From positions 2,102-66,101 of IMG/VR virus record IMGVR_UViG_3300020044_007046: 64,000 bases of DNA; one strand, written 5' to 3'. The stretch comes from a virus. Its lineage: Duplodnaviria > Caudoviricetes. The notes beneath the pieces are model-generated. The model saw only the letters and a program-made list of their open reading frames with translations, had not been told where the DNA came from and made no database searches. Positions 892 to 30,221 of the stretch are shown here, one piece after another. The position numbers and the translations under genes are program-made. Every line of letters starts with the position of its first letter. The first letter of the stretch is position 1.

Positions 892-894
892 TAT

Positions 895-1414: not shown

Positions 1415-1546
1415 TCATTCAAATAAAACGTAATCTTCTTTACCTACTCCGCACTCAGGACACTCAAAGTTTTCTGGAAGTGTATCCCATGCGCCCTCAG
1501 TAGCTTCATCGTGAACGTGATCACATACTACGCAAACATATGTCAT
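1415..1546 (-). CDS. Rubredoxin (43 aa, below the ORF-track cutoff)
   Basis: Manual translation MTYVCVVCDHVHDEATEGAWDTLPENFECPECGVGKEDYVLFE with two CxxC motifs; TAATG overlap with the upstream gene. Confidence 0.9.
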   Translation of the reverse strand: MTYVCVVCDHVHDEATEGAWDTLPENFECPECGVGKEDYVLFE

Positions 1547-1995
1547 TATAAGGACTCCAATTTTTGTTGATATGCCTGTGCGTGACGTTTTTCAACACCA
1601 GCAAGTGCGGCAAAACGTTTTTCTGCTAATGCAAGTACTTTTTGGAACTGTTCTGCGTGTTGCTTAGACTCATCAATTTGATGTGTTGCTTCAGCAACAG
1701 CTCTAGCATTGTTTTCATGCTCTGCTGCACGACGAAACTCTGGATACATAGTTGTGAACTCGTATGTTTCACCCTCAATAGCAAGCTCCAAACACTTGCG
1801 TGTATCAGGTTTACCAATCAGTAACTCTAAGTGTCCCCAAGCGTGTTTAATTTCTTGGTCGGCAGTATGTTCAAAGTGTTGTGCAACTTCTTCAAAACCC
1901 TCATCACGAGCAAGTTTAGCAAAATAGCGATATTTAATATGTGCCATCGACTCACCAGCCAAGGCACTTTCTAGATTTTTAATTGTAAGTGACAT
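1546..1995 (-). CDS. rbr: Rubrerythrin (ferritin-like diiron domain, no fused rubredoxin)
   Basis: NLESALAGESMAHIKYRYFA...EIKHA...AIEGETYE...MYPEF...VEKRHA diiron pattern; start taken at MSLTIKN. Confidence 0.85.
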   Translation of the reverse strand: MSLTIKNLESALAGESMAHIKYRYFAKLARDEGFEEVAQHFEHTADQEIKHAWGHLELLIGKPDTRKCLELAIEGETYEFTTMYPEFRRAAEHENNARAVAEATHQIDESKQHAEQFQKVLALAEKRFAALAGVEKRHAQAYQQKLESL

Positions 1996-1996
1996 A

Positions 1997-2890
1997 TTAT
2001 GCAGGAGTATATTCAATACCTGTTGTAGCTAAACCTACTAAACCGATGGTTGTTTCAAACGCAGACAACTCACTAGCCATTACTAATACATCTGCTTGAC
2101 TGTAGTTATTGGCTGTCATCCAACCTGTGTATGCAGTTACATCTGCTAATGTAGCATTTGTGCCCATAACATTTTTGTAAACGTGCTTGATGAAAGTTTC
2201 ATCACTAACACCGCCTGCATCAGTTTTGTATGTGTCGGTAGCTAACAATGCTGTGGCTATTTGTTTGTTTGTCCAACCTGCATCAGCAAGATGGATACCA
2301 ATACCTGTATAAGCTTTAGTAACATCACTAGTACCCAGTGCAGCTGCTAACAGTGCGTAAACATCGCCTGCACGACCTGCGGCATCGTAAGCAATGGCTT
2401 TATCTGTAAATACAACGCGCTCGTGATCAGCAAGTTTGAACTCAAGGTTACTAACTAAACCACTGGTTAAGTTTACTTCATCAGCAGTTTTAGTAATTGT
2501 ATATTCAGTGCTTGCGCCACCAACTGTGTAAGTATCTACACCAGTTGTGCCTGTAACATCGATTTGAACGTCTACTGTGCCATCGCCAATTCTACCAGTA
2601 CCTACTACACCAAAAGTAGCAATTTTACCAGCAGCACCAACTGTGCCAACTGTAACGATTAAATTGTTAGCTACTGTACCACCTAAGGCAGTACCTGCCA
2701 ATGTGATAGTGTCGCCTGCAACATAGCCAGTGCCTGCACTAGCAGCTACGGAGTCAAGTACTACTGAGTAAGTTCCGTTGGTTTTTGTAACATCAAATGT
2801 AGCACCATCACCAGTGCCTCCAGTTAGTCCAGTAACATTTTGATAAGTAGTATTTACTGCCTTATCTTTGATTGTAATTGTTGTTGTCAT
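1997..2890 (-). CDS. S-layer/RTX-associated-like protein with C-terminal DUF4214-like domain
   Basis: Thr/Gly-rich beta-type N-terminus, then HERVVFTDKAIAYD...AGDVYALLAAALG...FIKHVYKNVMG, typical of DUF4214-bearing surface proteins. Confidence 0.65.
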   Translation of the reverse strand: MTTTITIKDKAVNTTYQNVTGLTGGTGDGATFDVTKTNGTYSVVLDSVAASAGTGYVAGDTITLAGTALGGTVANNLIVTVGTVGAAGKIATFGVVGTGRIGDGTVDVQIDVTGTTGVDTYTVGGASTEYTITKTADEVNLTSGLVSNLEFKLADHERVVFTDKAIAYDAAGRAGDVYALLAAALGTSDVTKAYTGIGIHLADAGWTNKQIATALLATDTYKTDAGGVSDETFIKHVYKNVMGTNATLADVTAYTGWMTANNYSQADVLVMASELSAFETTIGLVGLATTGIEYTPA

Positions 2891-2912
2891 AAATTTCCTA
2901 TGTGTGTTGTGT

Positions 2913-2988
<76 letters not shown>

Positions 2989-2998
2989 GACTCGTGAG

Positions 2999-3072
2999 TG
3001 GAGCGGGATATCAGGCTCGAACTGATCTCTCTAGTTTGGAAGACTAGGGCACAACCCCTATACCAATCCCGC
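2999..3072 (-). tRNA. tRNA-Gly (TCC)
   Basis: GCGGGAT...CTAGT-CTTCCAA-ACTAG...TTCGAGC...TCCA. Confidence 0.9.
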
Positions 3073-3163
3073 TTAAATTTCTAAGTTTACTTTTTCTACT
3101 TGCACAAAGCCGTGCTCATCTATTGCCCAGATTAATACTTCTAGCATATTAGGTGTTGAGTAA

Positions 3164-3436
3164 TCAAAAAGGGACATCTTCATCTTTCCAAGGTGCAATC
3201 TCATTTTGATAATATTCTTCAGCTTCACGAAAGCCTGCACGTGCTAGTAGGTCTGTCATAACAGGAGTTGTAAAATTAACAAAACCTTGTTTGTTTAACC
3301 AAATCAGGTATTCAAAATCATCAGCAATAATATCACATATTCGACAACCAGCAAACTTGCCCATTGTAAGTTTATCTAACATATCTAGTTTGTTTGATTT
3401 TAAATTACCAAATGTTTTAGCCATTTTCTTTCTCAA
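3164..3436 (-). CDS. Small protein with GKF/GKY-type motif (exodeoxyribonuclease X C-terminal-like)
   Basis: LTMGKFAGCRICDI...EYLIWL pattern; ends in DVPF. Confidence 0.5.
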   Translation of the reverse strand: MRKKMAKTFGNLKSNKLDMLDKLTMGKFAGCRICDIIADDFEYLIWLNKQGFVNFTTPVMTDLLARAGFREAEEYYQNEIAPWKDEDVPF

Positions 3437-4007
3437 CTTCAGTTTCTTCTAGTGCTGCCATTTTAGCTAACACCAAATCAATTCGTGCTAACACTTGCTG
3501 ACTGGTCATCCAAATGTCTTTGTTGTCTAGCATTGACTTGATTTCTTCAGGCGTTAAAAACTCATGATATACTTCGCGCAAGAAGTTTTCACTCCAAGCA
3601 CGTTCAAACTGAAGTTGATCAAACATTTCTCCGCCTTTGCCAAACACGCCTGCACTATAATTGTGGAACATAAATAAACTGTGAGGAGTTACTTCGAACT
3701 CATCTCCGTGTAAAAAGATCATTGTTGCAGCACTCATACAAGCGCCTTCTACACTGGTAATTACATGGGCATCAGTTTCACTTAGCACGCGCAAAAATTG
3801 CAAGGCAGTATATAAATCGCCTCCACAACTGTTAATATAAATTTTAACTGTGTCGGTTGCACGAGCATTACGAATGGTATCAAACCACTCTATGTATTCA
3901 TTGGCTTCTTCAATTTCGCCTGACAAATAAAATTCGTATAGGTTTCCAGTTACTTTAGAAAAAGAACTTTTACCTGTGGTTAGCAAGGAATCTAATTTAT
4001 CTGTCAT
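3417..4007 (-). CDS. clpP: ClpP/S14-family protease
   Basis: IYINSCGGD, CMSAATMIF (catalytic Ser) and FMFHN (His); start taken at MTDKL. Confidence 0.85.
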   Translation of the reverse strand: MTDKLDSLLTTGKSSFSKVTGNLYEFYLSGEIEEANEYIEWFDTIRNARATDTVKIYINSCGGDLYTALQFLRVLSETDAHVITSVEGACMSAATMIFLHGDEFEVTPHSLFMFHNYSAGVFGKGGEMFDQLQFERAWSENFLREVYHEFLTPEEIKSMLDNKDIWMTSQQVLARIDLVLAKMAALEETEVEKENG

Positions 4008-4021
4008 GTGTGTTTCTTTAG

Positions 4022-4159
4022 TTAAGTTGTTTTTAAATATTCTCGGCAAGCAGTTACCCAAGCGACAACAGTCATGTTGTCTGTAACATGACTGTAGTTT
4101 TGGATAACCCATTGACATATGTCTGGGCTTTTGGCATGATAGCCTGGTATTAAGTCCAT
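4022..4159 (-). CDS. Small hypothetical protein (45 aa)
   Basis: AAAGGA RBS then MDLIPGYHAK...; only the 3' part of track ORF 4022..4402 lies outside tRNAs. Confidence 0.5.
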   Translation of the reverse strand: MDLIPGYHAKSPDICQWVIQNYSHVTDNMTVVAWVTACREYLKTT

Positions 4160-4172
4160 GTTTATCCTTTGT

Positions 4173-4250
4173 TGGAAGTGTGAGTCAGATTCGAACTGAC
4201 GGCTTTCAGGATTTGCAATCCCGTGCATTGGACCGCTCTGCCACCACACT
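4173..4250 (-). tRNA. tRNA-Cys (GCA)
   Basis: AGTGTGG...CGGGA-TTGCAAA-TCCTG...TTCGAAT...TCCA. Confidence 0.9.
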
Positions 4251-4255
4251 GTATT

Positions 4256-4329
4256 TGGCATATCTCCAGGGACTCGAACCCCGACTAGCGGTTTTGGAGA
4301 CCGCGGTGCTGCCATTACACTAGAGACAT
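4256..4329 (-). tRNA. tRNA-Trp (CCA)
   Basis: ATGTCTC...GCGGT-CTCCAAA-ACCGC...TTCGAGT...GCCA. Confidence 0.9.
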
Positions 4330-4336
4330 ATGAATT

Positions 4337-4411
4337 TGGCGGTCTTATGGGGTAACGATCCCCATCTACAGCAGTGACAGTGCTGTGTGCGTCCGTGAAC
4401 ACTTTAAGACC
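4337..4411 (-). tRNA. tRNA-Asp (GTC), atypical T-loop
   Basis: GGTCTTA...CAGCA-CTGTCAC-TGCTG...TGGGG-ATCGTTA-CCCCA-TAAGACC-GCCA. Confidence 0.8.
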
Positions 4412-4520
4412 TGATAAATAGTAAGTAATATGCTACTACAGCTATTCCTGCAACAACAATTATGTTGCAGACAATATTGTATATTTTTTCGCCATTAGAA
4501 GTCATACTATCTCCTTTGTT

Positions 4521-4595
4521 TGGGCAGACGTTATGGTTTCGATCCATATCTACGAATTTCACAGATTCGGGTGCTCCCAGTACACTAAACGCTGC
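4521..4595 (-). tRNA. tRNA-His (GTG), bulged acceptor stem
   Basis: CGAAT-CTGTGAA-ATTCG anticodon arm, ATGG-ATCGAAA-CCAT T-arm, CCA end; the acceptor GCAGCGT/ACGTCTGC needs a 1-nt bulge. Confidence 0.65.
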
Positions 4596-4697
4596 ATACC
4601 ATTTTTAGTAGCGCCTGGTCGCCATATCCAGGTTGCCTCAGCGTCAGGGAGGAGAATAACGCTTACATGCAATAGCCAATGAATTCGCTACTAAAAA

Positions 4698-4773
4698 TGG
4701 TACTCGGTACGAGATTCGAACTCGTGTGCTCGCCGTGAAAGGGCGGTATCCTAGGCCTCTAGATGAACCGAGT
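4698..4773 (-). tRNA. tRNA-Glu (TTC)
   Basis: ACTCGGT...CGCC-CTTTCAC-GGCG...TTCGAAT...ACCA. Confidence 0.9.
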
Positions 4774-4779
4774 GTTGTT

Positions 4780-4863
4780 TGGTACGAGTAATCGGAGTCG
4801 AACCGATACGTTTTACACGGCAGATTTTAAGTCTGCTGGGTCTACCAATTCCCCCATACTCGC
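4780..4863 (-). tRNA. tRNA-Leu (TAA)
   Basis: GCGAGTA...GCAGA-CTTAAAA-TCTGC, long variable arm, TTCGACT, ACCA. Confidence 0.9.
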
Positions 4864-4868
4864 AGTAT

Positions 4869-5072
4869 TTATACTACTCTAACTACAAGTGTAATTAGGT
4901 CAAGCCATACTGAACTATAAGTATCCTTAAGATAGTTAACATCTCGAATACTAAGGTATGGTCCGTTAACAATCTTAAAATCTTTTCCAGCGTTCCAATC
5001 AGCTTTGGCTTCTTCGCTAGTTTTATAGTGTCTGCCATATGCAGGCATAATCATTAATGGCTTTGAGTTCAT
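4869..5072 (-). CDS. Hypothetical protein
   Basis: 67 aa ORF with an AAGGA RBS. Confidence 0.65.
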   Translation of the reverse strand: MNSKPLMIMPAYGRHYKTSEEAKADWNAGKDFKIVNGPYLSIRDVNYLKDTYSSVWLDLITLVVRVV

Positions 5073-5098
5073 AGATTATCCTTGTCGTTAAAGAATAA

Positions 5099-5281
5099 TT
5101 ATAACAAACTTTTACCACTTGAGTCAACTTTGAAATTTTGTGCGTCTTGAGTTTCTTGATTGTTGCGAGTAGGTTTATCTGTTTCCGAATCCGTAGCAAA
5201 GATAGCATCCCAACGAGCTGCATACTCTTGGTCTGACACACTGTAGGGTCTTGGCTTTGAACCTTTTCCACCATCTGACAT
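5099..5281 (-). CDS. Small phage hypothetical protein (MSDGGKGSKPRP...)
   Basis: GGAGA RBS; 60 aa ORF. Confidence 0.65.
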   Translation of the reverse strand: MSDGGKGSKPRPYSVSDQEYAARWDAIFATDSETDKPTRNNQETQDAQNFKVDSSGKSLL

Positions 5282-5492
5282 TTTGTTTCTCCAATTAAAT
5301 AAGGTTTAGGATTACCCACAATACACTCCATCCTGCAGGCCTAGGTGGAGATTTAACTCTGAAACTGTTGCACGTGCACGCACTAGGTTTCTCACCCGCT
5401 TTGACTTAGGGTCGAAAGGTGTTGTAGGTAAACCTAAACCTTAGTTTAGGGCAGGCGTTTCACCTGCATGGGGCGTTATTTCAGCCCATGTT

Positions 5493-5563
5493 TGGTTGCG
5501 GCGGAAGGACTCGAACCTTCTAAGCGGAGCTTATGAGACTTGCTTCTACCCTGACTCACCGCG
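5493..5563 (-). tRNA. Degenerate initiator-type tRNA-fMet (CAT)
   Basis: C1:A72 mismatch (CGCGGTG/CGCCGCA-ACCA), CTCATAA loop and good T-arm, but a weak anticodon stem lacking the three G-C pairs and a short D-arm. Confidence 0.55.
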
Positions 5564-5568
5564 GTATG

Positions 5569-5715
5569 TTAATAACAGTTATTGAATAGTTTGCGCTCGC
5601 GATAGTTTTGCCAAACTGCTTCTAATCGTTGCACATCTTTGTGGTCTACAGGTTGTGCATCTTCCATAAAGTCATCTAGCGTATAAGGTTTGAATATATC
5701 CTGTAAACGCTGCAT
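5569..5715 (-). CDS. Small hypothetical protein (48 aa)
   Basis: Manual translation MQRLQDIFKPYTLDDFMED...; fills the gap between the adjacent CDS and the tRNA. Confidence 0.5.
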   Translation of the reverse strand: MQRLQDIFKPYTLDDFMEDAQPVDHKDVQRLEAVWQNYRERKLFNNCY

Positions 5716-5719
5716 TAGA

Positions 5720-5947
5720 TTACTTAACATCTTTGACAAACCCATATAACTTGTTTGCTTCTTTTAAGACTTCATCAAAAGTATACATTTTAGGAGCATA
5801 CTCTTTCCAGTCGTCAGCAACTTTTTTACCTTCTTTTACAAGTTGTTCAAAAGTCTGTTGAGCAAAATCCAAGTTAATTTCCTGCTGTTTTTGCAGGTAG
5901 TCTTGCGCCATTTTTAGCATTTCTGCACGAATTTCAAAAGGATTCAT
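5720..5947 (-). CDS. Helical hypothetical protein (MNPFEIRAEMLKMAQDY...)
   Basis: 75 aa; overlaps the next ORF by ATGA. Confidence 0.7.
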   Translation of the reverse strand: MNPFEIRAEMLKMAQDYLQKQQEINLDFAQQTFEQLVKEGKKVADDWKEYAPKMYTFDEVLKEANKLYGFVKDVK

Positions 5948-15583: not shown

Positions 15584-15929
15584 TTACTCAATTCCAGCTT
15601 ATCAAGCACTTAAATCTCCTACTCAAGAAGTACTAGCTGCTGAAGTGTCCAAAGATTTGCCGCCTACAAGCTTGCGTCAAGCACAAACCAACTTTCTACT
15701 AGATAAACTGCAAGAAGAAGCGGCTGAGGTAATTCAAGCAGTTAACAAAATTCGCAGATTTGGTGAAAACAACAAGCACCCTGAGCGTAATACAACCAAC
15801 AAACAAGACTTGGCTAATGAACTAGAAGATTTTCTTGCAATTCTCGCAGCTCTTGAGTATACAAAGTATCTTGATTTAGTTCCGCACCAACAAAACATCC
15901 TCCACAAGACACATAAGCTAATTGTTTAA
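15567..15929 (+). CDS. MazG-like NTP pyrophosphohydrolase
   Basis: LQEEAAEVIQAVNKIRRFG...DLANELEDFLAI (ExxE...ExxD). Confidence 0.75.
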   Translation: MATTPNYSIPAYQALKSPTQEVLAAEVSKDLPPTSLRQAQTNFLLDKLQEEAAEVIQAVNKIRRFGENNKHPERNTTNKQDLANELEDFLAILAALEYTKYLDLVPHQQNILHKTHKLIV

Positions 15930-16314
15930 CTGACCCTAAACTGTAATAAGTACGCTAATTTAAACTGCATACCCTTATGCAGCAACTGTATCAAAGACGT
16001 TGCCATTCTATACCGCAAGTGTTATAATAATTATAATTCGCAAAGTTTGTAATCAACTTTTACAATATGCATAAAAAAATTACACTTGTATATACACTAT
16101 CAAATGTGCTATAATTTAGTATAACTTGTTAAGAGTTAAAGACTAGACTGATTTTAGAAATTGCGTAAACCATCATGTGTGGGAGGGGTCCCCCCAGGGG
16201 TTGGGGCCTACATAATATGATGCGGTTTAGGGTCAATTTGATAAAATCTGTGTCTAGTCTTATTGCTTATCGACTATTACTGTATCTAAAATAAATCACA
16301 TATATTAAAATAAA

Positions 16315-17112
16315 ATGCTATTTAAAAAACAAGAATTACATTCAATCGACTTTGAACCCACTTATGGTAAATCGGTGGAATCTTTTGAAGTTTGGGCTGA
16401 ATCACACGAACTGTCCCACCTTTCCAGTTGGTTGCTGCCCCAGCTTGTTGCCTATTTTGGTAACTGGACTTTAGTTTATACAGACTCTGGTTCAGTTGAT
16501 TGTTTAGCGACTATTTACCACAACTGCCCTGACCCTCAGTCTAGGGCATTTTACACTTTGAGCAGGATTAAAAGATCAGTCCTAGTCTCAAACCAAACCA
16601 AGAGTCCTGATTACGCAACACTTACCCCGCTTATCTTAATGGGGCAAAAGCGTATGAGAGGAGTCAGTTACGAATCTTGGAGAACAGCTAAAGATCTTAG
16701 CTGGATGCTTGAGCCTAGGCTTTATGAAGCCCTAATGCTGGATCCTATGGTAGTAGAAAATTGCTGCAGTTTAGGGTCAGAAAGACTTATTGAAATTAGA
16801 GACCAAGGTCTTTTAGCTCGAACTGGAGTAAAAGCAGGCCAAACAAAGCCTGCTAAATCTACTTGGAGCTTGACTGGAATTCAAGACACAGAGTTAGGTA
16901 GTTTGCCAAAATTAACACAAACTATCCTAACTCAATGTTGGTTGGCACACCCTGAATCTAGAACATCTTATATGATCCTAGATCTACAAGACTGGGACTC
17001 AATGCCACAACCTTTAGTTACCAATGACATTTTTAAAGCACCAGTGCAAAAACCAGAACCAACCAAGAAACTAACAAAAGAGAAGGCAGAATTGCTGCCA
17101 TGGGACCTATGA
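16315..17112 (+). CDS. D2: T5 D2-like protein
   Basis: TLTPLILMGQKRMRGVSYESW...RTGVKAGQ...QCWLAHPESRTSYMILDLQDWD..PQPL...PW matches the T5 D2 pattern as recalled. Confidence 0.75.
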   Translation: MLFKKQELHSIDFEPTYGKSVESFEVWAESHELSHLSSWLLPQLVAYFGNWTLVYTDSGSVDCLATIYHNCPDPQSRAFYTLSRIKRSVLVSNQTKSPDYATLTPLILMGQKRMRGVSYESWRTAKDLSWMLEPRLYEALMLDPMVVENCCSLGSERLIEIRDQGLLARTGVKAGQTKPAKSTWSLTGIQDTELGSLPKLTQTILTQCWLAHPESRTSYMILDLQDWDSMPQPLVTNDIFKAPVQKPEPTKKLTKEKAELLPWDL

Positions 17113-17462
17113 AATACACCAAAGAAATCACAGACAAATTGATTGCAGACTATAAGGCAGGAGTGCCTGTTGCGGTAATAGCTCAAGGGCTAGATGTACC
17201 AGAACGTAGTGTGATTGCTAAATTAAGCTCTCTGGGCGTCTATACCAAGAAAAGCTATGTCAACAAGCGTGGTGAGGTACCAGTTAAAAAATCGGAGCAC
17301 ATCGAGCGTATTGCTGAGCTATTAGACGTGGATGAAGAATTGCTGGAATCGCTGGAGAAGGTAAATAAAACTGTACTTAAGCTAATTGAACACAAATTGG
17401 CCCAGGTTGACCCTAAACTGCCACAACTTGGCACAAAATCGGAGTTATTTGCACTTAATTGA
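17109..17462 (+). CDS. D3: T5 D3/A2-family DNA-binding protein
   Basis: RSVIAKLS...VY...VKK..H...LESLEK motif; directly follows D2 as in T5. Confidence 0.7.
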   Translation: MKYTKEITDKLIADYKAGVPVAVIAQGLDVPERSVIAKLSSLGVYTKKSYVNKRGEVPVKKSEHIERIAELLDVDEELLESLEKVNKTVLKLIEHKLAQVDPKLPQLGTKSELFALN

Positions 17463-17493
17463 CCCTAAGCTGAGCAAATCAGCCTAATTAAAA

Positions 17494-17530
17494 GAAAAGC
17501 CCACTTAAATTGCTTTAAGTGGGCTTTTTT
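17494..17530 (+). terminator. Intrinsic terminator after D3
   Basis: AAAGCCCACTTAAA-TTGC-TTTAAGTGGGCTTTTTT. Confidence 0.8.
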
Positions 17531-17647
17531 GCGTCTGTTACCGTGGTGGTCGTAATTGCACTGGTTTGTTGCGGTTTAGGGTCAGAACAGTCAAGAATTA
17601 CCACTTGACAAGATTTAGCACTATGTGGTATAATGGCGCCGAGCACA

Positions 17648-17687
17648 CAAAACAAAACCCCGTCACCATTACGTGTACGGGGTTTTG
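17648..17687 (-). terminator. Intrinsic terminator (possibly bidirectional)
   Basis: 11-bp stem CAAAACCCCGT/ACGGGGTTTTG with a T-rich tail on the minus strand. Confidence 0.75.
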
Positions 17688-18241
17688 AAAGCATTTACTA
17701 CTGCAGTAGCGTTGTCTTTTTTGCTCTAGCAGGACTATTAAGGGAATCACCACCGCCTGACCCTAAACTGTAGCCTGTCGCTACATACATCCGCTGGTGA
17801 TGAGTCCATTGCGATGTTGTTTAGGTGAGTATGCACGTTTCAGTCCTGTCAACCTCTACTTAACGCGAAGCGTCTCGATTGGGTATGCAAGGATATCCGT
17901 GACTAACTGGTTTAGATTTATGTGGTTCCGCACAACTGTTTTTTCAATTATTTTAACGACCCGCCACAGTTTAGGGTCGATGTGCGTCTTTAAGTATAAG
18001 CTGAAGCGCCCTTCGAATATACTCGCCAGAGAGATTCCATACTCTCATTACAGTCAATAAAGTCTGCTCTTGGTTAGAAGATAGCTGTATTTAATTTAGG
18101 AGTTCTTTCTCCTAGAGGTTCCTATGTTATGTTACCTCAAAACCAGTTAGCAAGTACGTATGCAGACGACGTGGGATATAGGTGGGACACGCTACCTAGA
18201 ACTACTCTTTACCTAACACCAGCAAGTGGTACACGCTAGGG

Positions 18242-18353
18242 ATTTCGTCCTGACCCTAAACTGCTGACATTTAGAAGTATTGAAGTCTTCAGGAATGTCT
18301 GCGATTGTAAAGGGTTTCGCCTGTATTTCAGAGGCTCATCAGAGGATTAAAAT
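18242..18353 (-). ncRNA. Type I hammerhead ribozyme
   Basis: Minus strand UCCU-CUGAUGA-GCCU(CUGAAAUAC)AGGC-GAA-ACCCU...AGGGU-C/AGGA: full core, stems I, II and III, GUC cleavage triplet at 18254-18252. Confidence 0.8.
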
Positions 18354-18763
18354 GGGCGATAACTTAAGTCTTTCAGTCATCATTAAAAACTTATCCAGTT
18401 CCATGGAGAGCTGGTCTTGGTTTACCCAATCTGTAGGGGGCTGTGGCTCGGGTAATTATTCCCCACAATTAAGACGCATAGCAGATATATCCCGCTTCCG
18501 CTGTCACCCTTATTCATCAATTTATATAATAATTATACAGTATTTAACACACTATATCAAGTAAGAAATTAGACACTCGTTGCAATCAGACTACTCACAA
18601 AACAGACTAATATTAATTTGCGTGGTTGAGGTGAGATTCATTTGCAGACGGACACCAACTTTCGCTGGTATTCATTAAGCCCTTCCCGACTGTCTAAGAT
18701 ATTATTATACATGAATTGGGGTTGAGGATCAAGAGTAAATTTTCTGACCCTCAACCGTTACAA

Positions 18764-19072
18764 TCAACGCAAGTTTGCGAGGATTGCTTCCAAGACTTCG
18801 TGATTGGCTTTTTCCAAGCTATCAAAAGTTTCTGGAGCTACACCAACTCGGTTGGCGATGCGATCAACCAATTCGGCTTTCTTAACACGGGCTACGCCAG
18901 TGCTCTTAGATTTGGCATGGTAAACTCCTTCTCTGGAGAGTTTTGCCACGATTGACCGAGTGGTCTTGCCAAACATTTCGGCCAAGCTTTCCACGCTTAC
19001 GCCGTCGTTGTATTTGGCTACGAGCTGAGCAGTTTGCTCAGGTGTGTAATTTACGGTTTTGTCAGTCATCAT
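18764..19072 (-). CDS. A2: A2-family DNA-binding protein, paralogue 1
   Basis: VNYTPEQTAQLV...GKTTRSIVAKLSREGVY...VKKAELV...DSLEKAN; own promoter TTGTAG-17-TATAAT. Confidence 0.7.
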   Translation of the reverse strand: MMTDKTVNYTPEQTAQLVAKYNDGVSVESLAEMFGKTTRSIVAKLSREGVYHAKSKSTGVARVKKAELVDRIANRVGVAPETFDSLEKANHEVLEAILANLR

Positions 19073-19129
19073 ATGTCCTTTCAAATGGTTTCTGCGCTGT
19101 TAAAGATATAATTATACGGGATTTGAACA

Positions 19130-19252
19130 TCAACTACAAGTGAGAATTTCTTCGGGTATGAGCATGTCTTCAAGAATTTTCGACACCTCGTCGTCCACAA
19201 AATCCTCAAACCATTGTTGCTGATCCTGCCTGAAAAAATCATTGTCTGTCAT
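19130..19252 (-). CDS. Small acidic protein (40 aa)
   Basis: Manual translation MTDNDFFRQDQQQWFEDFVDDEVSKILEDMLIPEEILTCS; AAGGA RBS and TTGAAC-17-TATAAT promoter. Confidence 0.6.
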   Translation of the reverse strand: MTDNDFFRQDQQQWFEDFVDDEVSKILEDMLIPEEILTCS

Positions 19253-19444
19253 GTTGGTTTCCTTCTCATCAATACAATAATTATACAAAATTTCGCAAAA
19301 CAGTTCAAATTTAAATTTTTGCTGGTTTCACGCCAAGAAATATTTACTTGACACAACAAGCTTTTCCACTATATAATGGGCGCACAAGCAGCACAAAGTT
19401 TTCCACTTGACAAGGATTACCACTGGCGCAGCATGCTGACTGCG

Positions 19445-19530
19445 CAGTCACAAAATGAACGCTCCAGTCACAATTTGAACCGAACAGTCGCAAAATGAAC
19501 GCTCCAGTCACAATTTGAACCGAACAGTTC
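19445..19530. repeat. Tandem repeat, 4 x 20 bp (2 x 40 bp higher-order unit)
   Basis: CAGTCACAAAATGAACGCTC / CAGTCACAATTTGAACCGAA / CAGTCGCAAAATGAACGCTC / CAGTCACAATTTGAACCGAA / CAGTTC. Confidence 0.95.
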
Positions 19531-19721
19531 AACTTAATTAATAATTACGGGCGTGGCGCAAGAATCGTGCCAGGTTGCGTAAAAACAACATAGGGGTAAA
19601 CACCTATTGACACGCTTCAAAATTATATGCTATAATTTTGGCGCCAGCGAAGTGAGTGCTTACTTCGCTGGGAGATAATAAAAAGCCGATTATAAATAAT
19701 CGGCTTATAATCATTATATGA

Positions 19722-20042
19722 TTATATTGGCTTTGAATTAGCCAATGCTTCGAAAATCGCTTTTAAAGCATTTTTATTTGCTTTAGTTAATGATTCAATA
19801 TCATTTTCGGGTAATCGCAAAATCGCACCAATAGCATCTGCGTGAGTATCTTTTTTAACTGGAGATTCTCCAGTTTTAGATTTATATTCTTTTTTAATAT
19901 AAACCTTTTCACGAGATAATTTAGCGACAATACTCCGAACAGTTTTACCGAGATTATCTGCGATAATCTCAACTGATTTACCCGCTTGATAATCAGCGAT
20001 AATCTGAGCAGTTTGCTCAGGGGTATAATTAATGTTTTTCAT
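19722..20042 (-). CDS. A2: A2-family DNA-binding protein, paralogue 2
   Basis: INYTPEQTAQII...GKTVRSIVAKLSREKVY...PVKKDTH...ESLTKAN; terminator hairpin at 19683-19706. Confidence 0.7.
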   Translation of the reverse strand: MKNINYTPEQTAQIIADYQAGKSVEIIADNLGKTVRSIVAKLSREKVYIKKEYKSKTGESPVKKDTHADAIGAILRLPENDIESLTKANKNALKAIFEALANSKPI

Positions 20043-20054
20043 TTATTTTCTCCT

Positions 20055-20288
20055 TTAAAATGAATTATATAAACCAAGAATATTAGCTAAAAAGAAAGTA
20101 CCATTAAGAACCATTAATGATTTATCTTTTCGATAATATCCAACTATTAACCAAGATAATGAACCGATAATAAAAAAGCAATATCCCAAAAAGAATAATT
20201 GACTGGCAACAATAAATGCACCGATAATGCTAGATATAGTCCCAATCCAAGAAACTATATTAAGTAATTGAATAATATTAAAAATCAT
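20055..20288 (-). CDS. Small three-helix membrane protein (PnuC/PQ-loop-like half-unit)
   Basis: SWIGTISSIIGAFIVA...GYCFFIIGSLSW...FFLANILGLY. Confidence 0.6.
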   Translation of the reverse strand: MIFNIIQLLNIVSWIGTISSIIGAFIVASQLFFLGYCFFIIGSLSWLIVGYYRKDKSLMVLNGTFFLANILGLYNSF

Positions 20289-20662
20289 CGTTTTATTTCC
20301 ATTGAGTGATATTTATCGGGAGATAATCCATAGTTAATCATTATCTCTTGCCATTTTTTACCATGACCACATTTTGCTTCTGATAATCCAAACAAATTAT
20401 AATCGGCTTGGTGGATTAACTCATGCGGTAATATAACTTTAGTCATATTATTTGCATAATCGGGAGAATATACAAAGAATTTATAACCTAATTCGACAAT
20501 ATTAGATTCTTGGTGGCATAATCCCGCATTACGCCACAAATAACCATTTAATTCTATAATCGGTGGATTATAGCGAGTTAATCGGGGATATAATTCGCAA
20601 AGATTATCCCAAATAATCAGGGTCTGATTATTTAAAATATTAATTAGCTTTTTTCTGTCCAT
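20285..20662 (-). CDS. SprT-like zinc metalloprotease
   Basis: NAGLC, ILPHELIHQ (HExxH), HGKKWQEIM. Confidence 0.8.
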   Translation of the reverse strand: MDRKKLINILNNQTLIIWDNLCELYPRLTRYNPPIIELNGYLWRNAGLCHQESNIVELGYKFFVYSPDYANNMTKVILPHELIHQADYNLFGLSEAKCGHGKKWQEIMINYGLSPDKYHSMEIKR

Positions 20663-20840
20663 GTCCTACATTATACACAAGTCACAAACCATTGCAAATT
20701 ATTTTTGAATACACAAGTACACATTCGCCAAAATACAACATAGGGGTTTACCCCTATTGACACGGGCTCCAAAATTATGATATAATTTTGGCGCAAAATT
20801 GAATACCTGAGTATTCAATTTTTATGGGAAACAAAAGTAT

Positions 20841-21089
20841 TCATTTTGATTTTATTTTATAATAAATAATAACCGATAAAAAGATTACATTTGCAGTATA
20901 ATTAAATAATAATGGTAAATCCATTTTAGGGAATACATATATTATTGTGAATATCTCGCCAATAAACCACATTGAAATAAATCCCCAAGTTAATCCCTCA
21001 GAGGATTTTGTTTTATATGATTCTATTGCTTGCGGTAATCCGCAAAATGCCAATAATATAGAACCAATCCAACCTATATTTTCTATCAT
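20841..21089 (-). CDS. PQ-loop/SemiSWEET-like membrane protein
   Basis: IGWIGSILLAFCGLPQAIESYKTKSSEGLT...; three hydrophobic helices. Confidence 0.75.
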   Translation of the reverse strand: MIENIGWIGSILLAFCGLPQAIESYKTKSSEGLTWGFISMWFIGEIFTIIYVFPKMDLPLLFNYTANVIFLSVIIYYKIKSK

Positions 21090-21224
21090 AATATTAAATC
21101 CCTTGTTAAAAAGTTATTATACCGCATTTCATAATGATCGTCAATATCATATCGTTTTTGGGTATAAATAAAAAACAATAATAAGATAATCCATAAAATT
21201 CTATTATTAGTTAATCTCATTTTA

Positions 21225-21920
21225 TTATGCCTTAAAATTATCTCGCACCTGAAATTTATTCCAGTCATAAGGGACTATATTATCTTGCCAATTACGTTTT
21301 TTGAGAATATGAGTTAAAATAGGTAATTCAAAATCTCGGGCATCTTCTAAAGCAGTATGCGGTTCAATAATAAAATTATTATTAATATAACCACAAACCA
21401 TTTCTGCATTAGTTTTAAATGTCATATTACCATGTTTAGTAACATTATTAAAACCATGATTATCTAAACAGAATTGTTTATATTTTTTGGTTTTGCAAAT
21501 ATTGCCAATACTGGCTTGCCATAAACAAAACTTCTGATTAAAACCTGATAAATCAATACCAGTATTTGAGCATTTATTTAAATCAAAAGCGAGATTATAT
21601 GCAGTTAATGAGGGATTATATTTGCCGATTGCCTGATTAATCCATTTATTAATTGCATTAACTGAGGCAATCATTCTCACGCCATTTTCTAACATGGCAA
21701 TATAAGCCATTTTGCGCTTAGTTAATCCCTCATAACCCCAAATATCATTTGCTTTTTTATCATGGAATAATTCCATTGTATTATAATGCCCATTAACTAA
21801 AACAGCGCATTGATTATAAATGCGACCTTCACGATCACAAATAACCATTGCAAAATCAGCGACAGTATCGCCCATTGTGGTTTCTGTGTCTAGAATACAA
21901 AAGTATTGCTTTTTTGCCAT
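21225..21920 (-). CDS. DEDDh 3'-5' exonuclease
   Basis: ILDTETT (ExoI), AYNLAFD (ExoII), HTALED (ExoIII); start taken at MAKKQY. Confidence 0.85.
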   Translation of the reverse strand: MAKKQYFCILDTETTMGDTVADFAMVICDREGRIYNQCAVLVNGHYNTMELFHDKKANDIWGYEGLTKRKMAYIAMLENGVRMIASVNAINKWINQAIGKYNPSLTAYNLAFDLNKCSNTGIDLSGFNQKFCLWQASIGNICKTKKYKQFCLDNHGFNNVTKHGNMTFKTNAEMVCGYINNNFIIEPHTALEDARDFELPILTHILKKRNWQDNIVPYDWNKFQVRDNFKA

Positions 21921-22123
21921 GTATGCTTTCAGTTGGTAGACCTGCATCTTACCACAAAATTTAAAAAATCTGTGTTGTATTTTAATCACACACAAAAAAT
22001 AAGTTATTAAAAAATGCTTGACACGGGCTCAATTATACTAGTATAATTGGCGCAAACTGTGGTTTTAAAACCACAGTTATTTTGAAAACCTGAGTATTCA
22101 AAAATTTTTGAAAACCTGAGTAT

Positions 22124-22282
22124 TCAAAAATAAGGTTGAGCCGATTCGCTTTTGTCCATAATATCCGCCCAGCCATGCCAGCCCATTTGCCAAGCCTCCG
22201 ATTGTGCCTTGTCTAATGGTTCACCTAGTGAATGGGCATCAAAACCCAATTCATAATCTCGATTATTAAAATAGTTAATCAT
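22124..22282 (-). CDS. Small hypothetical protein (52 aa)
   Basis: GGAGA RBS; manual translation MINYFNNRDYELGFDAHSLGEPLDKAQSEAWQMGW... Confidence 0.55.
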   Translation of the reverse strand: MINYFNNRDYELGFDAHSLGEPLDKAQSEAWQMGWHGWADIMDKSESAQPYF

Positions 22283-22408
22283 TAGTTTATTCTCCGAGTT
22301 AATATATCTAAAATCTGTCTTAATGGTATTTGCATTATGTCTACAATATCATAAAGATTATAGCCTTCGGCTAAAAAATCTTTAATTAATGTTTCGGCAT
22401 AATCAATA

Positions 22409-22885
22409 TTAATGCCCTTGTTTACTTGGTACATATACACCCCTTATATTGAAACGATCACAAACTGCTTTTAAATAAGTTACATTATCCTCATAAAATG
22501 TAAATTCAGCATCTTTAAATGTAATTAAATTAAAGAATTTAGCCAAACCATTAATTTTTAATGTAGCACCTGAGATATTAGAATTCTCAGGTCTTGAAAT
22601 AATATAATCAGGTTCACCCAGTATCTGATTAATAAATGTATAATCAGGGGTATTAAGAACACGGGCAGTAGCAATAATGACATAACACGATTCATCTTTT
22701 AAATCCTTTTTATATTGTTCTGCTAATGGCAAAAGAGAATCATTCAAGGCTAAATCTTGATTTTCTCTCCAATAATTTAAATCTATTCTCTCGCCATTTT
22801 CATCTACAATAGTGCGATATCTATGCAAAGAACAAACGATTGTTCCATCCATATCATAAATTGAAACCTTTTTAATTTTAGCCAT
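22409..22885 (-). CDS. dmp: HAD-family deoxynucleoside-5'-monophosphatase (T5 dmp-like)
   Basis: IYDMDGTIVCSLHR...IDLNYWRE...DSLLPL...IIATARV...FYEDN matches the T5 Dmp pattern as recalled. Confidence 0.75.
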   Translation of the reverse strand: MAKIKKVSIYDMDGTIVCSLHRYRTIVDENGERIDLNYWRENQDLALNDSLLPLAEQYKKDLKDESCYVIIATARVLNTPDYTFINQILGEPDYIISRPENSNISGATLKINGLAKFFNLITFKDAEFTFYEDNVTYLKAVCDRFNIRGVYVPSKQGH

Positions 22886-22888
22886 TTT

Positions 22889-23020
22889 TTAATCCTTGAA
22901 ATATTGTCTGATTGCCGATTTGTATTCTGCCATTGTAGCAAATTTTAAACCATGTCGCAAGCAAAATTTGCGAAATTCTGCAAATTGTTTTGTAGTGTAC
23001 TGATATTCTTTTTTCATCAT
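22889..23020 (-). CDS. Small basic protein (43 aa)
   Basis: Start taken at MMKKEY, downstream of a TATAAT element. Confidence 0.55.
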   Translation of the reverse strand: MMKKEYQYTTKQFAEFRKFCLRHGLKFATMAEYKSAIRQYFKD

Positions 23021-23175
23021 AGCCCCAATTATACACGCAAAACCGCCCAAAAACCATGTGTGCAAAAATACAACATAGGTGTTTACACCTATTGACACGG
23101 GCTCCAAAATTATGATATAATTTTGGCGCAAAATTGAATACCTGAGTATTCAATTTTTTCTGCAAACCTGAGTAT

Positions 23176-23538
23176 TCAAAATGAAACAATATCTATATTG
23201 TAATAAGCCTTAAAATAATTTCGCCATTGGGTAAAGCCTGATTTTGTGTCGTGCGTTATATCCTTGTCTTGTTCCATTTGCCATGCGTGAACATACTCAT
23301 GCGCTAATGTTGAAAATAAATCAAGGTCTGATTTTATTTCGCTAGTGGCAAGCCTGATTTTGTGATTGTATTTCTTAGGGCTAATCTTTTCGCCCTCATA
23401 CATTCCCATGCAAGAGTCACCATCAAAACGCAAAACCTTAGTCTTTGCAAAGTTAATCCGTGATTTTAGCTTAAACTCATTTTGTAGTATAAGCTGGAAC
23501 AATCTTGTTTTATCTGATCTAATCATTTTGAAATCCAA
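23176..23538 (-). CDS. Second HExxH zinc metallopeptidase (SprT-like)
   Basis: LFSTLAHEYVHAWQ...H. Confidence 0.7.
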   Translation of the reverse strand: MDFKMIRSDKTRLFQLILQNEFKLKSRINFAKTKVLRFDGDSCMGMYEGEKISPKKYNHKIRLATSEIKSDLDLFSTLAHEYVHAWQMEQDKDITHDTKSGFTQWRNYFKAYYNIDIVSF

Positions 23539-23821
23539 AGCAATAGCGCAACCTTAACGCATATAAACGCAACGACACCCAAACACACATTAAAGAATTC
23601 TATATCTGTCATTAGTCAACCTGTATATCTGTTATTACATTATTGTTTACAATAAAGTACATTTCAACCAAACCCATGCTAACCCAAACGCAACGATTAC
23701 CCTCACGGATAGCATAAGGTTTATTAGGGTATTTTTTAGCTAAGTAGCTTTCAACAATTTCAAAATTTTTCATAGGTCTATTATATCAGATAAAACAAGA
23801 TAGGGGCAAAGCCCCTATTGA

Positions 23822-24142
23822 TTACAAGGTCTTTTCAGCCTTGATAAAATCGGCAATTTTAGCAAGTGCTACCTTGTTTGCCTTAGTAAGTGATTCTGTA
23901 TCGGCTTCAGTCAAGCCCAACATTTCACCGATAAAATCAGCGTGAACATCTTTTTTAATCGGTGTTTCGCCTGATTTTGTTTTGTATGCCTTAGCAACAT
24001 AAACCTTTTCGCGTGATAGCTTCGCAACAACTGAACGCACAGTTTTACCTAATGCCTCAGCAATAGCGTCAACTGTCATACCGCCTTCGTAGTCGGCAAC
24101 CATGCGAGCAGTTTGCTCGGGGGTGTAGTTTACTGTTTTCAT
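23822..24142 (-). CDS. A2: A2-family DNA-binding protein, paralogue 3
   Basis: VNYTPEQTARMV...GKTVRSVVAKLSREKVY...PIKKDVH...ESLTKAN. Confidence 0.7.
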   Translation of the reverse strand: MKTVNYTPEQTARMVADYEGGMTVDAIAEALGKTVRSVVAKLSREKVYVAKAYKTKSGETPIKKDVHADFIGEMLGLTEADTESLTKANKVALAKIADFIKAEKTL

Positions 24143-28256: not shown

Positions 28257-30221
28257 ATGGTAGATAAAAATAAAGTGCTGTATGTAAACAGTTCTTTTAC
28301 TAAGAGTGAACCTACTACCACAGACGAAAGCGTTGAAATGTTAACCATTAAAGGTTACGCTTCAACTACTGACGTTGATAGACAGGGCGATATTGTTCCT
28401 GTAAGCGTTTGGGAAAAAGGTATTCAAAATTACTTGAAAAATCCAGTAATTTTAGCATACCATAATCACAGCGCTCCTATCGGTAGAATGACAGAGCACA
28501 AGGTTGATGAAAAAGGATTGCTTGTAAAAGCACGAATTTCTTCTGCAGCCGGTGACGTTTATAAACTAGTAAAAGACGGTGTACTCACAGCTTTTAGTAT
28601 CGGATTTCGCATTGTAGATGCGGAGTACAATTCAGCTGCAGAGCTGTTTGTGGTAAAGGAGTTGGAGCTGCACGAAATTTCAGTAGTGTCAGTACCTGCA
28701 AATCAAAACACATTATTTAGTCTCTCTAAGTCGTTTGAAAACGACGAAGAATTTAAATCTTTCAAAATGCAGTTTGCACCCAAAAGCGAATCAGCTAAAG
28801 GGCTAGAATCCTCTACGGAAGCGAACAGCGATGTTACAAAGGAATGGAAAATGGATCCAAAACAATTAGAACAAATGTTAGCTGATGCAGCTAGCAAAGC
28901 GGCTGAGCAAACTGCTAAAGCCATCGGAGAAAAGCAAGCTAAAGATGCTGCTGAGAAATTAGCTGCTGAAAAAGCTACTGCTGATATCGACGCACGCGTT
29001 AAAGCCGCTGTTGCAGCTATCTCCACTGTTGACACTGGTGCTGAAAAGCTCTTGGCTGAAGTCGAGAAGCGTTTGGCCTCTGCTGAAGAAACAAACAAAT
29101 CCGTGATCGCTGGTTTGGAGTCTGCTCTTAAAGAGAAGGCTGCTGAAATCGAAGCAATCACAAAGTCAAAAATGTCTTTTGCAGACACAAAAGCTGCTGG
29201 TGACGGTTTGACATATGCTGAAAAAGAGAAGGCAATCTTGTTGTCAAAGATGTCTGGTAAGTCTGTTGAAAGCACACGTACCGGCCGCGCTTTGATCGAG
29301 AAAGCTTCTGGCTATACTGCTGGTGACGTATCTACAACTGGTGCACACCTGCCAAGCGGTATCTGGGAAACTGAAGTTTCTATGAACATGGAAGCTGAGA
29401 TTCGTCGTCGTTTAGTCGTTTCTCCTATCTTCCGTAACATCGCTATGCAAACCAACGTGATGACTATGCCTGTTAACCCAGAAGCTGGTTTAGCACAGTG
29501 GGTTCAGAACGCTGGTTTCGGTACTAGCGCTTCTGCTGGTAACACAGCTACTCATCAGCTCAAAGAAATCACTTTGAACGCATATAAAGTTGCTACTAAC
29601 GAGTACACTGCATATGAAGAAGAAGAAGATGCTTTGTTGGCTTTGATGCCCGTGATTCGTGATGGTATGATCCGTCGTGTTGCACGCGCTGTTGATAAGG
29701 CCTTCTTGTTAGGTGCTGGCGCTGGTGCTGACCCCGTCAAAGGTTTGGCTAACTGGGCTACTAACACCACTGCCACTGGCAACACCGTTGCTGCCGGCAT
29801 GACAGTTGCTAAGTTGCGCACATTGCGTCAAGGTTTGGGTGTTTGGGGTCTCGATCCCGCTGAAGTTATCTTCATCGTTAACACCGACGCCTACTACCAG
29901 TTGTTAGAAGATCCTATCTTCCAAACTATGGACAAAGTTGGTGCACAAGCTACCGTGTTGACAGGTCAAATCGGTCAAGTTGGTGGAAGCCCCGTGTTGG
30001 TGTCTGCTGAGTATGCAGCCCCCGGTACAGGTGTTACAGGTGCTATCGCTGTTAACCCAGGAAACTTCTTGGTTGGTAACCAGCGTGGTCTCCGCATCGA
30101 CACACAAGAGTTAGTTGAGACACAGCGTCGCGTTATGGTGGCTAGCCTCCGTACCGGCATGACTCAAGTTACTACTGCACAAGGTACAGGCGTAACAGCT
30201 CACAAGTACACAGCATCCTAA
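28257..30221 (+). CDS. Prohead protease fused in frame to the major capsid protein (HK97 fold)
   Basis: N-terminal GYAST.DVDRQGD...HNH..PIG...FSIGF...EISVVSVPANQ, then a coiled-coil scaffold (delta) region and the capsid domain; no intervening stop. Confidence 0.9.
   Translation: MVDKNKVLYVNSSFTKSEPTTTDESVEMLTIKGYASTTDVDRQGDIVPVSVWEKGIQNYLKNPVILAYHNHSAPIGRMTEHKVDEKGLLVKARISSAAGDVYKLVKDGVLTAFSIGFRIVDAEYNSAAELFVVKELELHEISVVSVPANQNTLFSLSKSFENDEEFKSFKMQFAPKSESAKGLESSTEANSDVTKEWKMDPKQLEQMLADAASKAAEQTAKAIGEKQAKDAAEKLAAEKATADIDARVKAAVAAISTVDTGAEKLLAEVEKRLASAEETNKSVIAGLESALKEKAAEIEAITKSKMSFADTKAAGDGLTYAEKEKAILLSKMSGKSVESTRTGRALIEKASGYTAGDVSTTGAHLPSGIWETEVSMNMEAEIRRRLVVSPIFRNIAMQTNVMTMPVNPEAGLAQWVQNAGFGTSASAGNTATHQLKEITLNAYKVATNEYTAYEEEEDALLALMPVIRDGMIRRVARAVDKAFLLGAGAGADPVKGLANWATNTTATGNTVAAGMTVAKLRTLRQGLGVWGLDPAEVIFIVNTDAYYQLLEDPIFQTMDKVGAQATVLTGQIGQVGGSPVLVSAEYAAPGTGVTGAIAVNPGNFLVGNQRGLRIDTQELVETQRRVMVASLRTGMTQVTTAQGTGVTAHKYTAS

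Follow-up and report, generated by a model that had tools for sequence, protein, structure and literature searches.

The locus and its homologues

The stretch of DNA analysed here (the window) comprises 64,000 nucleotides of a virus that, judged from its sequence, is an uncultured freshwater T5-like phage: its large terminase (TerL) shares about 50% identity with the terminases of T5-like Vibrio phages and also has matches in hundreds of T5-like phages of Salmonella and Escherichia. Positions 17463-18763 of the window form a 1.3-kb gap, with convergent genes for small HTH proteins on both sides (Table 1). The adjoining minus-strand block (18764-24142) is AT-rich (28-33% GC) and contains a homologue of the T5 pre-early dmp at 22625-22876 (36% identity over 87 amino acids, E = 4e-12), which places the RNA gene described below at the pre-early block's inner edge, in agreement with the first-pass annotation of this DNA. 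The corresponding position in T5 is taken up by a 1.66-kb gap, non-coding and rich in repeats, within which the injection-stop signal is found (10.1101/866236; AY543070). Comparison of the flanking proteins with Pfam and PHROGs returned only weak HTH, SprT-like and PQ-loop matches and no RNA ligase or RNA-binding family. The contig ends found beside the RNA gene differ between assemblies and are therefore uninformative on genome termini.

Homologues were retrieved by pattern scans based on the core of the hammerhead ribozyme described below, which yielded 46 IMG/VR and 51 metagenome loci. Sixty-one of these loci carry the same RNA (group A); 40 of the 61 copies are full length from promoter to terminator (832-1130 nt), and after redundancy was removed at 97% identity, 36 group A copies remained, which share 66-86% identity with the window. 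Wherever a locus has sufficient flanking sequence, the RNA gene lies between orthologues of the same two convergent HTH genes. The nearest relative, IMG/VR contig G001, shows 80% identity over the region, its 5′ third being nearly identical to that of the window and its 3′ part variable and rich in indels. The remaining forms are a short one of about 450 nt (group B), which occupies the same locus, has a different 5′ domain and carries its terminator directly after the cleavage site, and a third (group C) with a GUA cleavage triplet and other domains. BLAST of 17400-18800 against 50,697 cultured phage records (INPHARED), in near and distant modes, gave no match, and a pattern scan of 185,579 cellular species genomes gave two, in a Geobacter MAG and a Saccharibacteria MAG; the RNA is not evidently of cellular origin.

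Variation among the copies is concentrated in recognizable segments. The segment GGGUGACAGCGG...CCACAGCCC of the 5′ domain is missing in five loci (L032, L035, L057, L069 and L074), and two others (L055 and L072) carry an inserted tRNA-Glu(UUC) in their 5′ part; ARAGORN detected no tRNA-like element in the window's copy of the RNA. The family has evolved in a modular way: the ribozyme is constant, while the RNA around it comes in long and in short forms, with domains that may be absent and with tRNA inserts. It is a good system in which to study how large RNAs are built.

Table 1. Features of the RNA locus, in window coordinates
Feature	Position	Strand	Evidence and remarks
HTH gene	17100-17462	+	phrog_323 'D5-like regulator' match
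Second terminator hairpin, bidirectional	17495-17528		15 pairs; between RNA gene and HTH gene 17100-17462; identical in G001
Sigma-70 promoter, TTGACA-18-TATAAT with TG extension	17605-17634	+	12/12 matches; faces terminator, antisense to RNA
Intrinsic terminator of RNA gene	17644-17687	-	hairpin 17687-17653, then UUUUGUUUUG
3′ cleavage product, abundant highly structured mature RNA, ~540 nt	17715-18251	-	contig depth; covarying helices
Domain closed by long-range helix 17978-17957 / 17780-17759	17759-17978	-	GACCCUAAACUGUGGC pairs with GCUACAGUUUAGGGUC
5′-proximal hairpin of mature RNA, CCUAGCGUGUACCACUUGCUGGUGUUAGG	18212-18240	-	nearly invariant; stems invariant in all group A copies, loop alone varies
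Type I hammerhead ribozyme (predicted)	18248-18346	-	complete core; R1 model 96.4 bits
Predicted self-cleavage site, between GUC and A	between 18252 and 18251	-	GUC triplet ends at C18252 (H17, not G)
Helix III	18315-18311 / 18257-18253	-	carries ~53-nt inserted subdomain; A15.1-U16.1 = A18315-U18253
GAA (G12 A13 A14)	18318-18316	-	sequence
Helix II	18335-18332 / 18322-18319	-	covariation
Core CUGAUGA	18342-18336	-	C3 U4 G5 A6 N7 G8 A9
Helix I	18346-18343 / 18251-18248	-	UCCU/AGGA
5′ domain of covarying hairpins (e.g. 18381-18375 / 18364-18358)	18347-18525	-	covariation; first part (~18514-18430) optional
Promoter P2, TTGATA-17-TATAAT, start near 18525	18532-18560	-	11/12 matches
P1 leader, conserved structured segment	18561-18697	-	hairpin ACCAGCGAAAGUUGGU and CUCAC/GUGAG pairing covary among homologues
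Promoter P1, TTGATC-17-TATAAT	18704-18732	-	10/12 matches; within hairpin just past stop of upstream HTH gene
HTH gene	18764-19084	-	phrog_323 'D5-like regulator' match

An ORF-free transcription unit

On the minus strand, 17648-18525 is a transcription unit with no credible ORF; its promoter is near consensus and its terminator strong. The first-pass annotation had described the promoter, an intrinsic terminator and the lack of a credible ORF, and each of these was confirmed. The promoter it had named is present as P2, and 58 of the 61 copies have TTGA-N19-TATAAT at a distance of 80-330 nt (mostly about 180 nt) upstream of the hammerhead; it was not found in L048, L095 and L096, the upstream sequence being too short to tell in two. 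The terminator hairpin (17687-17653) has a folding energy of -24.3 kcal/mol (z = -4.5), its stem shows compensatory changes in relatives, and a terminator follows 465-891 nt past the hammerhead in every copy whose contig is long enough. The longest sense ORF in the RNA gene has 32 amino acids; an antisense ORF of 87 amino acids keeps neither its position nor its length among 36 homologues, and ORFs of at least 30 amino acids in these homologues differ in place and length or are absent.

Further signals surround the unit. The P1 element is 100% identical in G001, and the arrangement of a promoter within a hairpin recurs at group B loci; the P1 leader would belong to a transcript of about 1050 nt if P1 reads through P2. 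On the opposite strand, the promoter at 17605-17634 is conserved in G001, and in group B loci it recurs, with GGCGCC, after the terminator.

Covariation supports a structured RNA encoded on the minus strand

RNAalifold, applied to the 36 non-redundant sequences, gave a consensus fold of 40 helices and 206 base pairs, in which most helices were more than 90% canonical and many compensatory changes were seen. As a check on circularity, the fold was learned on half of these copies and scored on the other half. Under this cross-validation, the fold was 93-96% paired, compared to 31-47% when partners were slid by 1-3 columns, and 56-68 pairs were changed on both sides, compared to 3-34 in the slid controls. 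The covariation among homologues that the first-pass annotation had proposed as a check was therefore found, and the region encodes a conserved, covariation-supported, structured non-coding RNA. There were 533 G-U cells versus 114 A-C cells, an excess which indicates that the RNA is on the minus strand, the strand to which the same kind of argument had earlier assigned the 16-bp long-range helix.

The earlier account of individual pairings fared less uniformly. Its 16-bp long-range helix (17978-17963 with 17774-17759) was 93% paired with canonical pairs in the 36 sequences and extends to 19 bp in the consensus (17978-17957 / 17780-17759), with four pairs changed on both sides; at least 10 contiguous pairs were present in 30 of the 32 sequences in which both strands could be located. 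Beyond this helix, the detailed secondary structure proposed before is mostly wrong. The 11-bp pairing of CUAACUGGUUU with AAACCAGUUAG was 63% paired and complete in the window only, the 8-bp pairing of UGCGUCUU with AAGACGCA was complete in 7 of 36 sequences and has lost its partner by deletion in G001, and that of GGGAUAUA with UAUAUCCC was complete in 14 of 36, with UAUAUCCC retained also where the entire 5′ domain is missing. As for the direct repeat UAGCGUGU.CCAC, both copies are indeed in the window, but the second is not conserved in relatives.

About 25 of the covarying helices lie within 17715-18251, including the closing helices 18206-18202 / 17732-17728. The exact pattern of the hairpin at 18212-18240 recovered only members of this RNA family from IMG/VR.

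A predicted hammerhead ribozyme within the RNA

All core nucleotides of a type I hammerhead are present in the RNA and are invariant in 38 distinct homologues, an invariance that is in part ascertainment, since the retrieval patterns contained core motifs. The cleavage triplet is GUC in all group A and group B copies and GUA in group C. In the same 38 homologues, four of the five helix II pairs were changed on both sides and the helix was 97.7% paired; helix III also covaries (L015, for instance, has ACCCC/GGGGU, and most others show a bulged-A register), and two pairs of its extension were changed on both sides. The hammerhead structure as a whole was 83% paired, compared to 32-43% when slid. 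Helix I has 3-4 bp, of which three pairs are invariant and the fourth is broken in 10 of 38 sequences (CCU/AGG); it shows no covariation because it is short and invariant. In group B it is longer, at 5-6 bp.

The minimum free energy fold of the isolated 114 nt reproduced the hammerhead structure exactly, and covariance model R1, built from the alignment, had only one match in the window (96.4 bits). The only Rfam model to respond at this site was Hammerhead_3, at 19.5 bits versus a gathering score of 48.5 (E = 0.54), a score that probably falls below threshold because of the insert of about 53 nt in helix III and the 3-4-bp helix I. Taken together, the conserved core and the covarying helices suggest that the embedded hammerhead most likely cuts the RNA itself.

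Abundance of the predicted 3′ product in lake metatranscriptomes

Six freshwater metatranscriptomes in a public-run index contain part of this stretch, and four of these, each from a different study, were analysed through their assembled contigs. Summed contig depth, which assigns one depth to each assembled contig, pools related strains, is strandless and has inexact ends, was 300-97,000 over 17727-18275 (3′ of the predicted cut) in the four runs, 0-200 over 18276-18519 (5′ of the cut) and 2-360 in the flanking coding DNA (17300-17482 and 18764-19100); the P1 leader, at 23-1190, was at the level of mRNA. In three of the four runs the bin 18276-18336 had a depth of 0-51 versus 297-5791 in the bin 18215-18275, and depth rose at least 100-fold within about 25 nt downstream of the predicted cut. 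Run X17 departs from the range given for 17727-18275, since it had no cover between 18093 and 18458. The high-depth contigs stop at or below 18241, and the sole contig that bridges the cut has a depth of 32. Conservation bias cannot explain this step, since the 5′ domain and the P1 leader are conserved at least as well as the 3′ domain.

There is thus good but indirect support for a cut in vivo at or near the position between 18252 and 18251 and for the 3′ product as the stable species, and we infer that hammerhead cleavage causes the step in depth. A possible internal promoter, CTGAAA-16-TACAAT at 18331-18304 (9/12 matches), was rejected, as it is not conserved in relatives and would have the high-depth contigs stop near 18297, whereas they stop at or below 18241. 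In contig data of this kind, an RNase cut near the same position would look identical.

The 3′ terminus of the mature RNA could be at any point between about 17715 and the terminator at 17650. No run had RNA contigs over 17544-17665, a gap that says nothing firm on the 3′ end because the terminator region varies between strains. Adapter-joined contig ends were seen at 18233 (run X15) and at about 17713 (run X17), each in a single contig, and hint at RNA ends. The far greater abundance of the mature RNA than that of neighbouring phage messages, in independent lake metatranscriptomes, indicates that it is very likely functional. Together, the covariation, the complete hammerhead core, the step in depth and the lack of a match in Rfam or the literature support the central proposal of the first-pass annotation, that of a new class of large phage non-coding RNA matured by its own ribozyme.

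These data also bear on a possible role in replication. One such role would be that of an origin pre-primer or R-loop RNA, like those of ColE1 (RNA II) or T4 ori. In its favour, the transcript is long, structured and untranslated, an antisense promoter lies at its end, and the gene adjoins a cluster of iteron-like repeats. However, it is established chemistry that hammerhead cleavage leaves a 2′,3′-cyclic phosphate, which is unable to prime DNA synthesis; moreover, the abundant species is the 3′ piece and no short primer, the GC skew shows no inflection or origin signal at the locus, and the locus is a convergent junction rather than a divergent one. We consider an origin primer highly improbable.

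A dispersed motif in the RNA and its surroundings

The 16-bp helix consists of two inverted copies of a dispersed motif, TTAGGGTC, which occurs 14 times in the window versus 1.4 expected, in both orientations and in some cases within coding DNA; nine exact copies fall in 15.9-18.8 kb, along with a variant (TTGAGGGTC) at 18743-18756. Three copies lie inside the RNA, namely at the hammerhead site and on both strands of the 19-bp helix. At 17759-17769 and 17968-17978 the motif does not vary although its flanks do, and copies at homologous places are kept in G001 and in group B loci. This persistence would fit a cis element that acts at the level of DNA, either a counterpart of the T5 injection-stop signal, whose position this non-coding gap between convergent pre-early and early blocks matches, or a set of sites bound by the flanking HTH paralogues, with the transcript being incidental. 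Yet such an element would leave unexplained the roughly 60 compensatory pairs across the whole 880 nt, the excess of G-U over A-C and the very high RNA depth confined to the 3′ product, and is very unlikely to account for the locus. A role of the motif (GTTTAGGGTCA) in DNA that coexists with the RNA, for example as binding sites for the HTH paralogues, is possible, if rather doubtful. Trans-cleavage at other copies of the motif, GGGUC/A (the slash here and below marks the cut), was rejected, as helix III is closed in cis and the AGG that helix I needs is not conserved in the dispersed copies.

The copy at the hammerhead site raises the question of whether the ribozyme could be controlled. In the window, an anti-strand (GACCCUAAAC...) could pair over 13 nt with the cleavage-site strand, and in group B the strand CCUGACCCUAAACCG, about 50 nt upstream of the hammerhead, complements 14-15 nt spanning the cleavage site; these pairings would suit a regulated switch in which the anti-ribozyme strand sequesters the site and a signal governs both cleavage and the fate of the RNA. 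However, in 22 of 32 group A sequences GACCCUAAAC is limited to 8 nt of pairing with the hammerhead site, while it pairs over 10-17 nt with the copy at 17759-17774, and it is the helix with this second copy that carries the covariation. The preference indicates that in group A the strand forms a structural helix and not an anti-ribozyme. Since the massive accumulation of the product in nature also implies that cleavage is not generally blocked, a switch of this kind is unlikely.

A second GGGUC/AGG site could also, in principle, serve as a second cleavage site. The 493-nt segment between the two sites (18251-17759), flanked by the direct repeat CAGUUUAGGGUCAGG, would then be excised and ligated into a circular RNA in the manner of retrozymes or viroid-like RNAs, and hammerhead products in general carry the ends that RtcB-type ligases join. 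The window, though, has only one catalytic core, whose helix III is closed in cis and would have to unfold to accommodate the second site; that site is itself locked in the covariation-supported 19-bp helix, and RNA cover runs past 17759 to about 17724. Such a circle is therefore extremely improbable. No back-joints were found in the metatranscriptome contigs, which drop rare forms and hence give no evidence of absence.

Proposed maturation and role of the RNA

The reading we favour, and hold to be likely, is that this T5-like freshwater phage has a dedicated gene for a large structured non-coding RNA that is matured by its own hammerhead. Host RNA polymerase would start at P2, and probably also at P1, 170 nt upstream, and would be released at the terminator near 17650; the primary transcript would thus be about 880 nt long. 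The type I hammerhead, its helix III closed by the subdomain of about 53 nt, would fold and cut after C18252. The 5′ piece of about 270 nt, which holds the catalytic core, would remain at mRNA-like levels, while the 3′ piece, from 18251 to about 17715-17650, would begin with a 5′-OH, fold into some 25 helices with long-range closing pairings and accumulate to 100-1000 times the level of the neighbouring phage messages. The hammerhead may thus act as a built-in device for 5′-end maturation and insulation, providing one defined 5′ end whichever promoter had fired and setting free a compact, very stable RNA of about 540 nt, and the 5′-OH presumably contributes to the stability of the mature RNA.

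What the mature RNA does is a matter for more tentative suggestions. Because of its abundance and its inner pre-early position, which matches that of the T5 injection-stop region, it may be an abundant trans-acting RNA, a scaffold or a decoy, of early host takeover, a guess that could well be wrong. That the mature RNA of about 540 nt represents a new functional class and that the RNA, or the transcription of its gene, is a working part of an injection-stop or second-step-transfer locus seems quite unlikely. If this last suggestion were true, it would be worthwhile to reinterpret the 'bewildering' inverted repeats, long described from the same place in T5 relatives, in terms of RNA structure, and the dispersed GUUUAGGGUCA motif would be a link between the RNA and the DNA or transcripts of the locus.

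Large, intricately folded RNAs of bacteria and phages are rare, and most have no known function. In the present case, the hammerhead apparently sets the 5′ end of the mature RNA, which would give natural phage hammerheads a concrete job, an open question since their discovery. The RNA moreover occupies the place of the unexplained injection-stop region of T5, the model phage for two-step DNA injection.

Comparison with known RNA families and systems

At the gathering score, Rfam 15 identified only six tRNAs in the 64-kb window, and at E values up to 10 the region 17300-18900 gave only matches at chance level. GOLLD, ROOL, OLE, HEARO and the other catalogued large RNAs had no covariance-model match in the window, in line with the inability of the first-pass annotation to relate the RNA to GOLLD or ROOL. 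Literature searches found no paper describing it. The RNA thus corresponds to no Rfam 15 family and to no described RNA in the literature searched.

GOLLD and ROOL nevertheless resemble this RNA in general character, being several hundred nucleotides long, rich in covarying helices, phage-encoded and abundant, and sometimes lying beside or containing tRNA genes; they differ in that neither the sequence nor the structure of the present RNA matches theirs in Rfam 15. To our knowledge, no ribozyme is known in either of them.

With the T5 injection-stop region, the locus shares a non-coding gap of 1.3-1.7 kb, repeats and inverted repeats, a place at the inner end of the pre-early region and convergent genes. 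Whereas the T5 region has been read as a DNA signal with DnaA boxes (10.1101/866236), the constraint seen here is on RNA pairing. A search of the genomes of T5 and Vibrio phage D51 with model R1 gave no hammerhead match, and the T5 injection-stop gap had no Rfam match.

The ribozyme itself has the hallmarks of type I hammerheads (Rfam clan CL00010), with CUGAUGA, GAAA, the A15.1-U16.1 pair, GUC and three helices of which helix I is open, but differs from known hammerheads in its conserved helix III subdomain of about 53 nt and its helix I of only 3-4 bp. For hammerheads in phage and prophage transcripts, a role in the processing of long RNAs has been proposed (Perreault et al. 2011, PMC3088659). 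The one described here likewise lies within a phage transcript; it does not separate genes of an mRNA but is embedded in a large non-coding RNA that it appears to mature.

The arrangement also recalls engineered insulators of the RiboJ type, in which a hammerhead strips the promoter-dependent leader and leaves a uniform 5′-OH followed by a hairpin. In both cases a hammerhead lies 5′ of a functional RNA, but RiboJ-type insulators are synthetic and placed ahead of mRNAs, whereas here the element is natural and the RNA downstream of it is non-coding.

Variation in the structured RNA and its leader

The short form of the RNA found at the same locus (group B: L006, L013, L025, L028, L041, L043 and L098) and the form with a GUA triplet (group C: L011, L021 and L027) are subfamilies of the same RNA, in which the ribozyme is retained and other domains have been exchanged. 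In group B, a terminator lies immediately after the cut and forms the end of the RNA, and the RNA's own cleavage site is complementary to a 14-15-nt strand elsewhere in the same RNA. The leader transcribed from the upstream promoter P1 is also conserved and its hairpins covary; a homologous leader (GGGAAGGGC...) constitutes the start of the group B RNAs. Two metagenomic relatives, L055 and L072, carry a tRNA-Glu(UUC) gene within the 5′ part of the RNA, and in L055 this tRNA gene ends 7 nt upstream of the hammerhead.

Elements surrounding the RNA gene

An 11-13-bp motif, (A/G)GTTTAGGGTCA, occurs 14 times in the window compared to 1.4 expected, with a cluster of copies surrounding the RNA gene and the adjoining HTH genes, and relatives keep it at homologous places. 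Besides forming part of the RNA, it is probably a protein-binding DNA site. At the 3′ end of the gene, a promoter antisense to the RNA is directed into its terminator; this promoter and its GGCGCC start region are kept in the nearest IMG/VR relative, G001, and in the group B loci. A short antisense RNA could arise from it; alternatively, it could serve as a roadblock to transcription.

Features in the window and in relatives of the RNA
Feature	Position	Strand	Description
P1-transcribed leader	18561-18697	-	conservation, covarying hairpins
Motif (A/G)GTTTAGGGTCA	cluster 15929-18757; scattered copies 225, 5406, 6912, 11194, 32174	both	
Sigma-70 promoter	17605-17634	+	TG extension; 12/12 consensus matches
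tRNA-Glu(UUC)	L055:405-479		inserted in RNA's 5′ part
tRNA-Glu(UUC)	L072:2084-2158		inserted in RNA's 5′ part
SprT-like protein	20285-20662	-	small, zinc metalloprotease-like; AT-rich pre-early block
PQ-loop membrane protein	20841-21089		
Dmp homologue	22409-22885	-	PHROGs 'polynucleotide kinase' (phrog_415)
SprT-like protein	23176-23538	-	small, zinc metalloprotease-like; AT-rich pre-early block
654-aa protein	28257-30221	+	head maturation protease family match (N-terminal); major head protein family match

Encoded proteins and the T5 counterpart

By its sequence, the product that PHROGs labels a polynucleotide kinase is a homologue of Dmp, the T5 pre-early deoxynucleoside-5′-monophosphatase (36% identity, 87 aa, E = 4e-12). 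The 654-aa protein, since it matches both head families, looks like a protease-capsid fusion. Searches of the T5 injection-stop gap (L104, AY543070 9157-10936) with Rfam and with the hammerhead model gave no match. This gap occupies the same relative position as the RNA gene of the window and, like it, is flanked by convergent pre-early and early genes.
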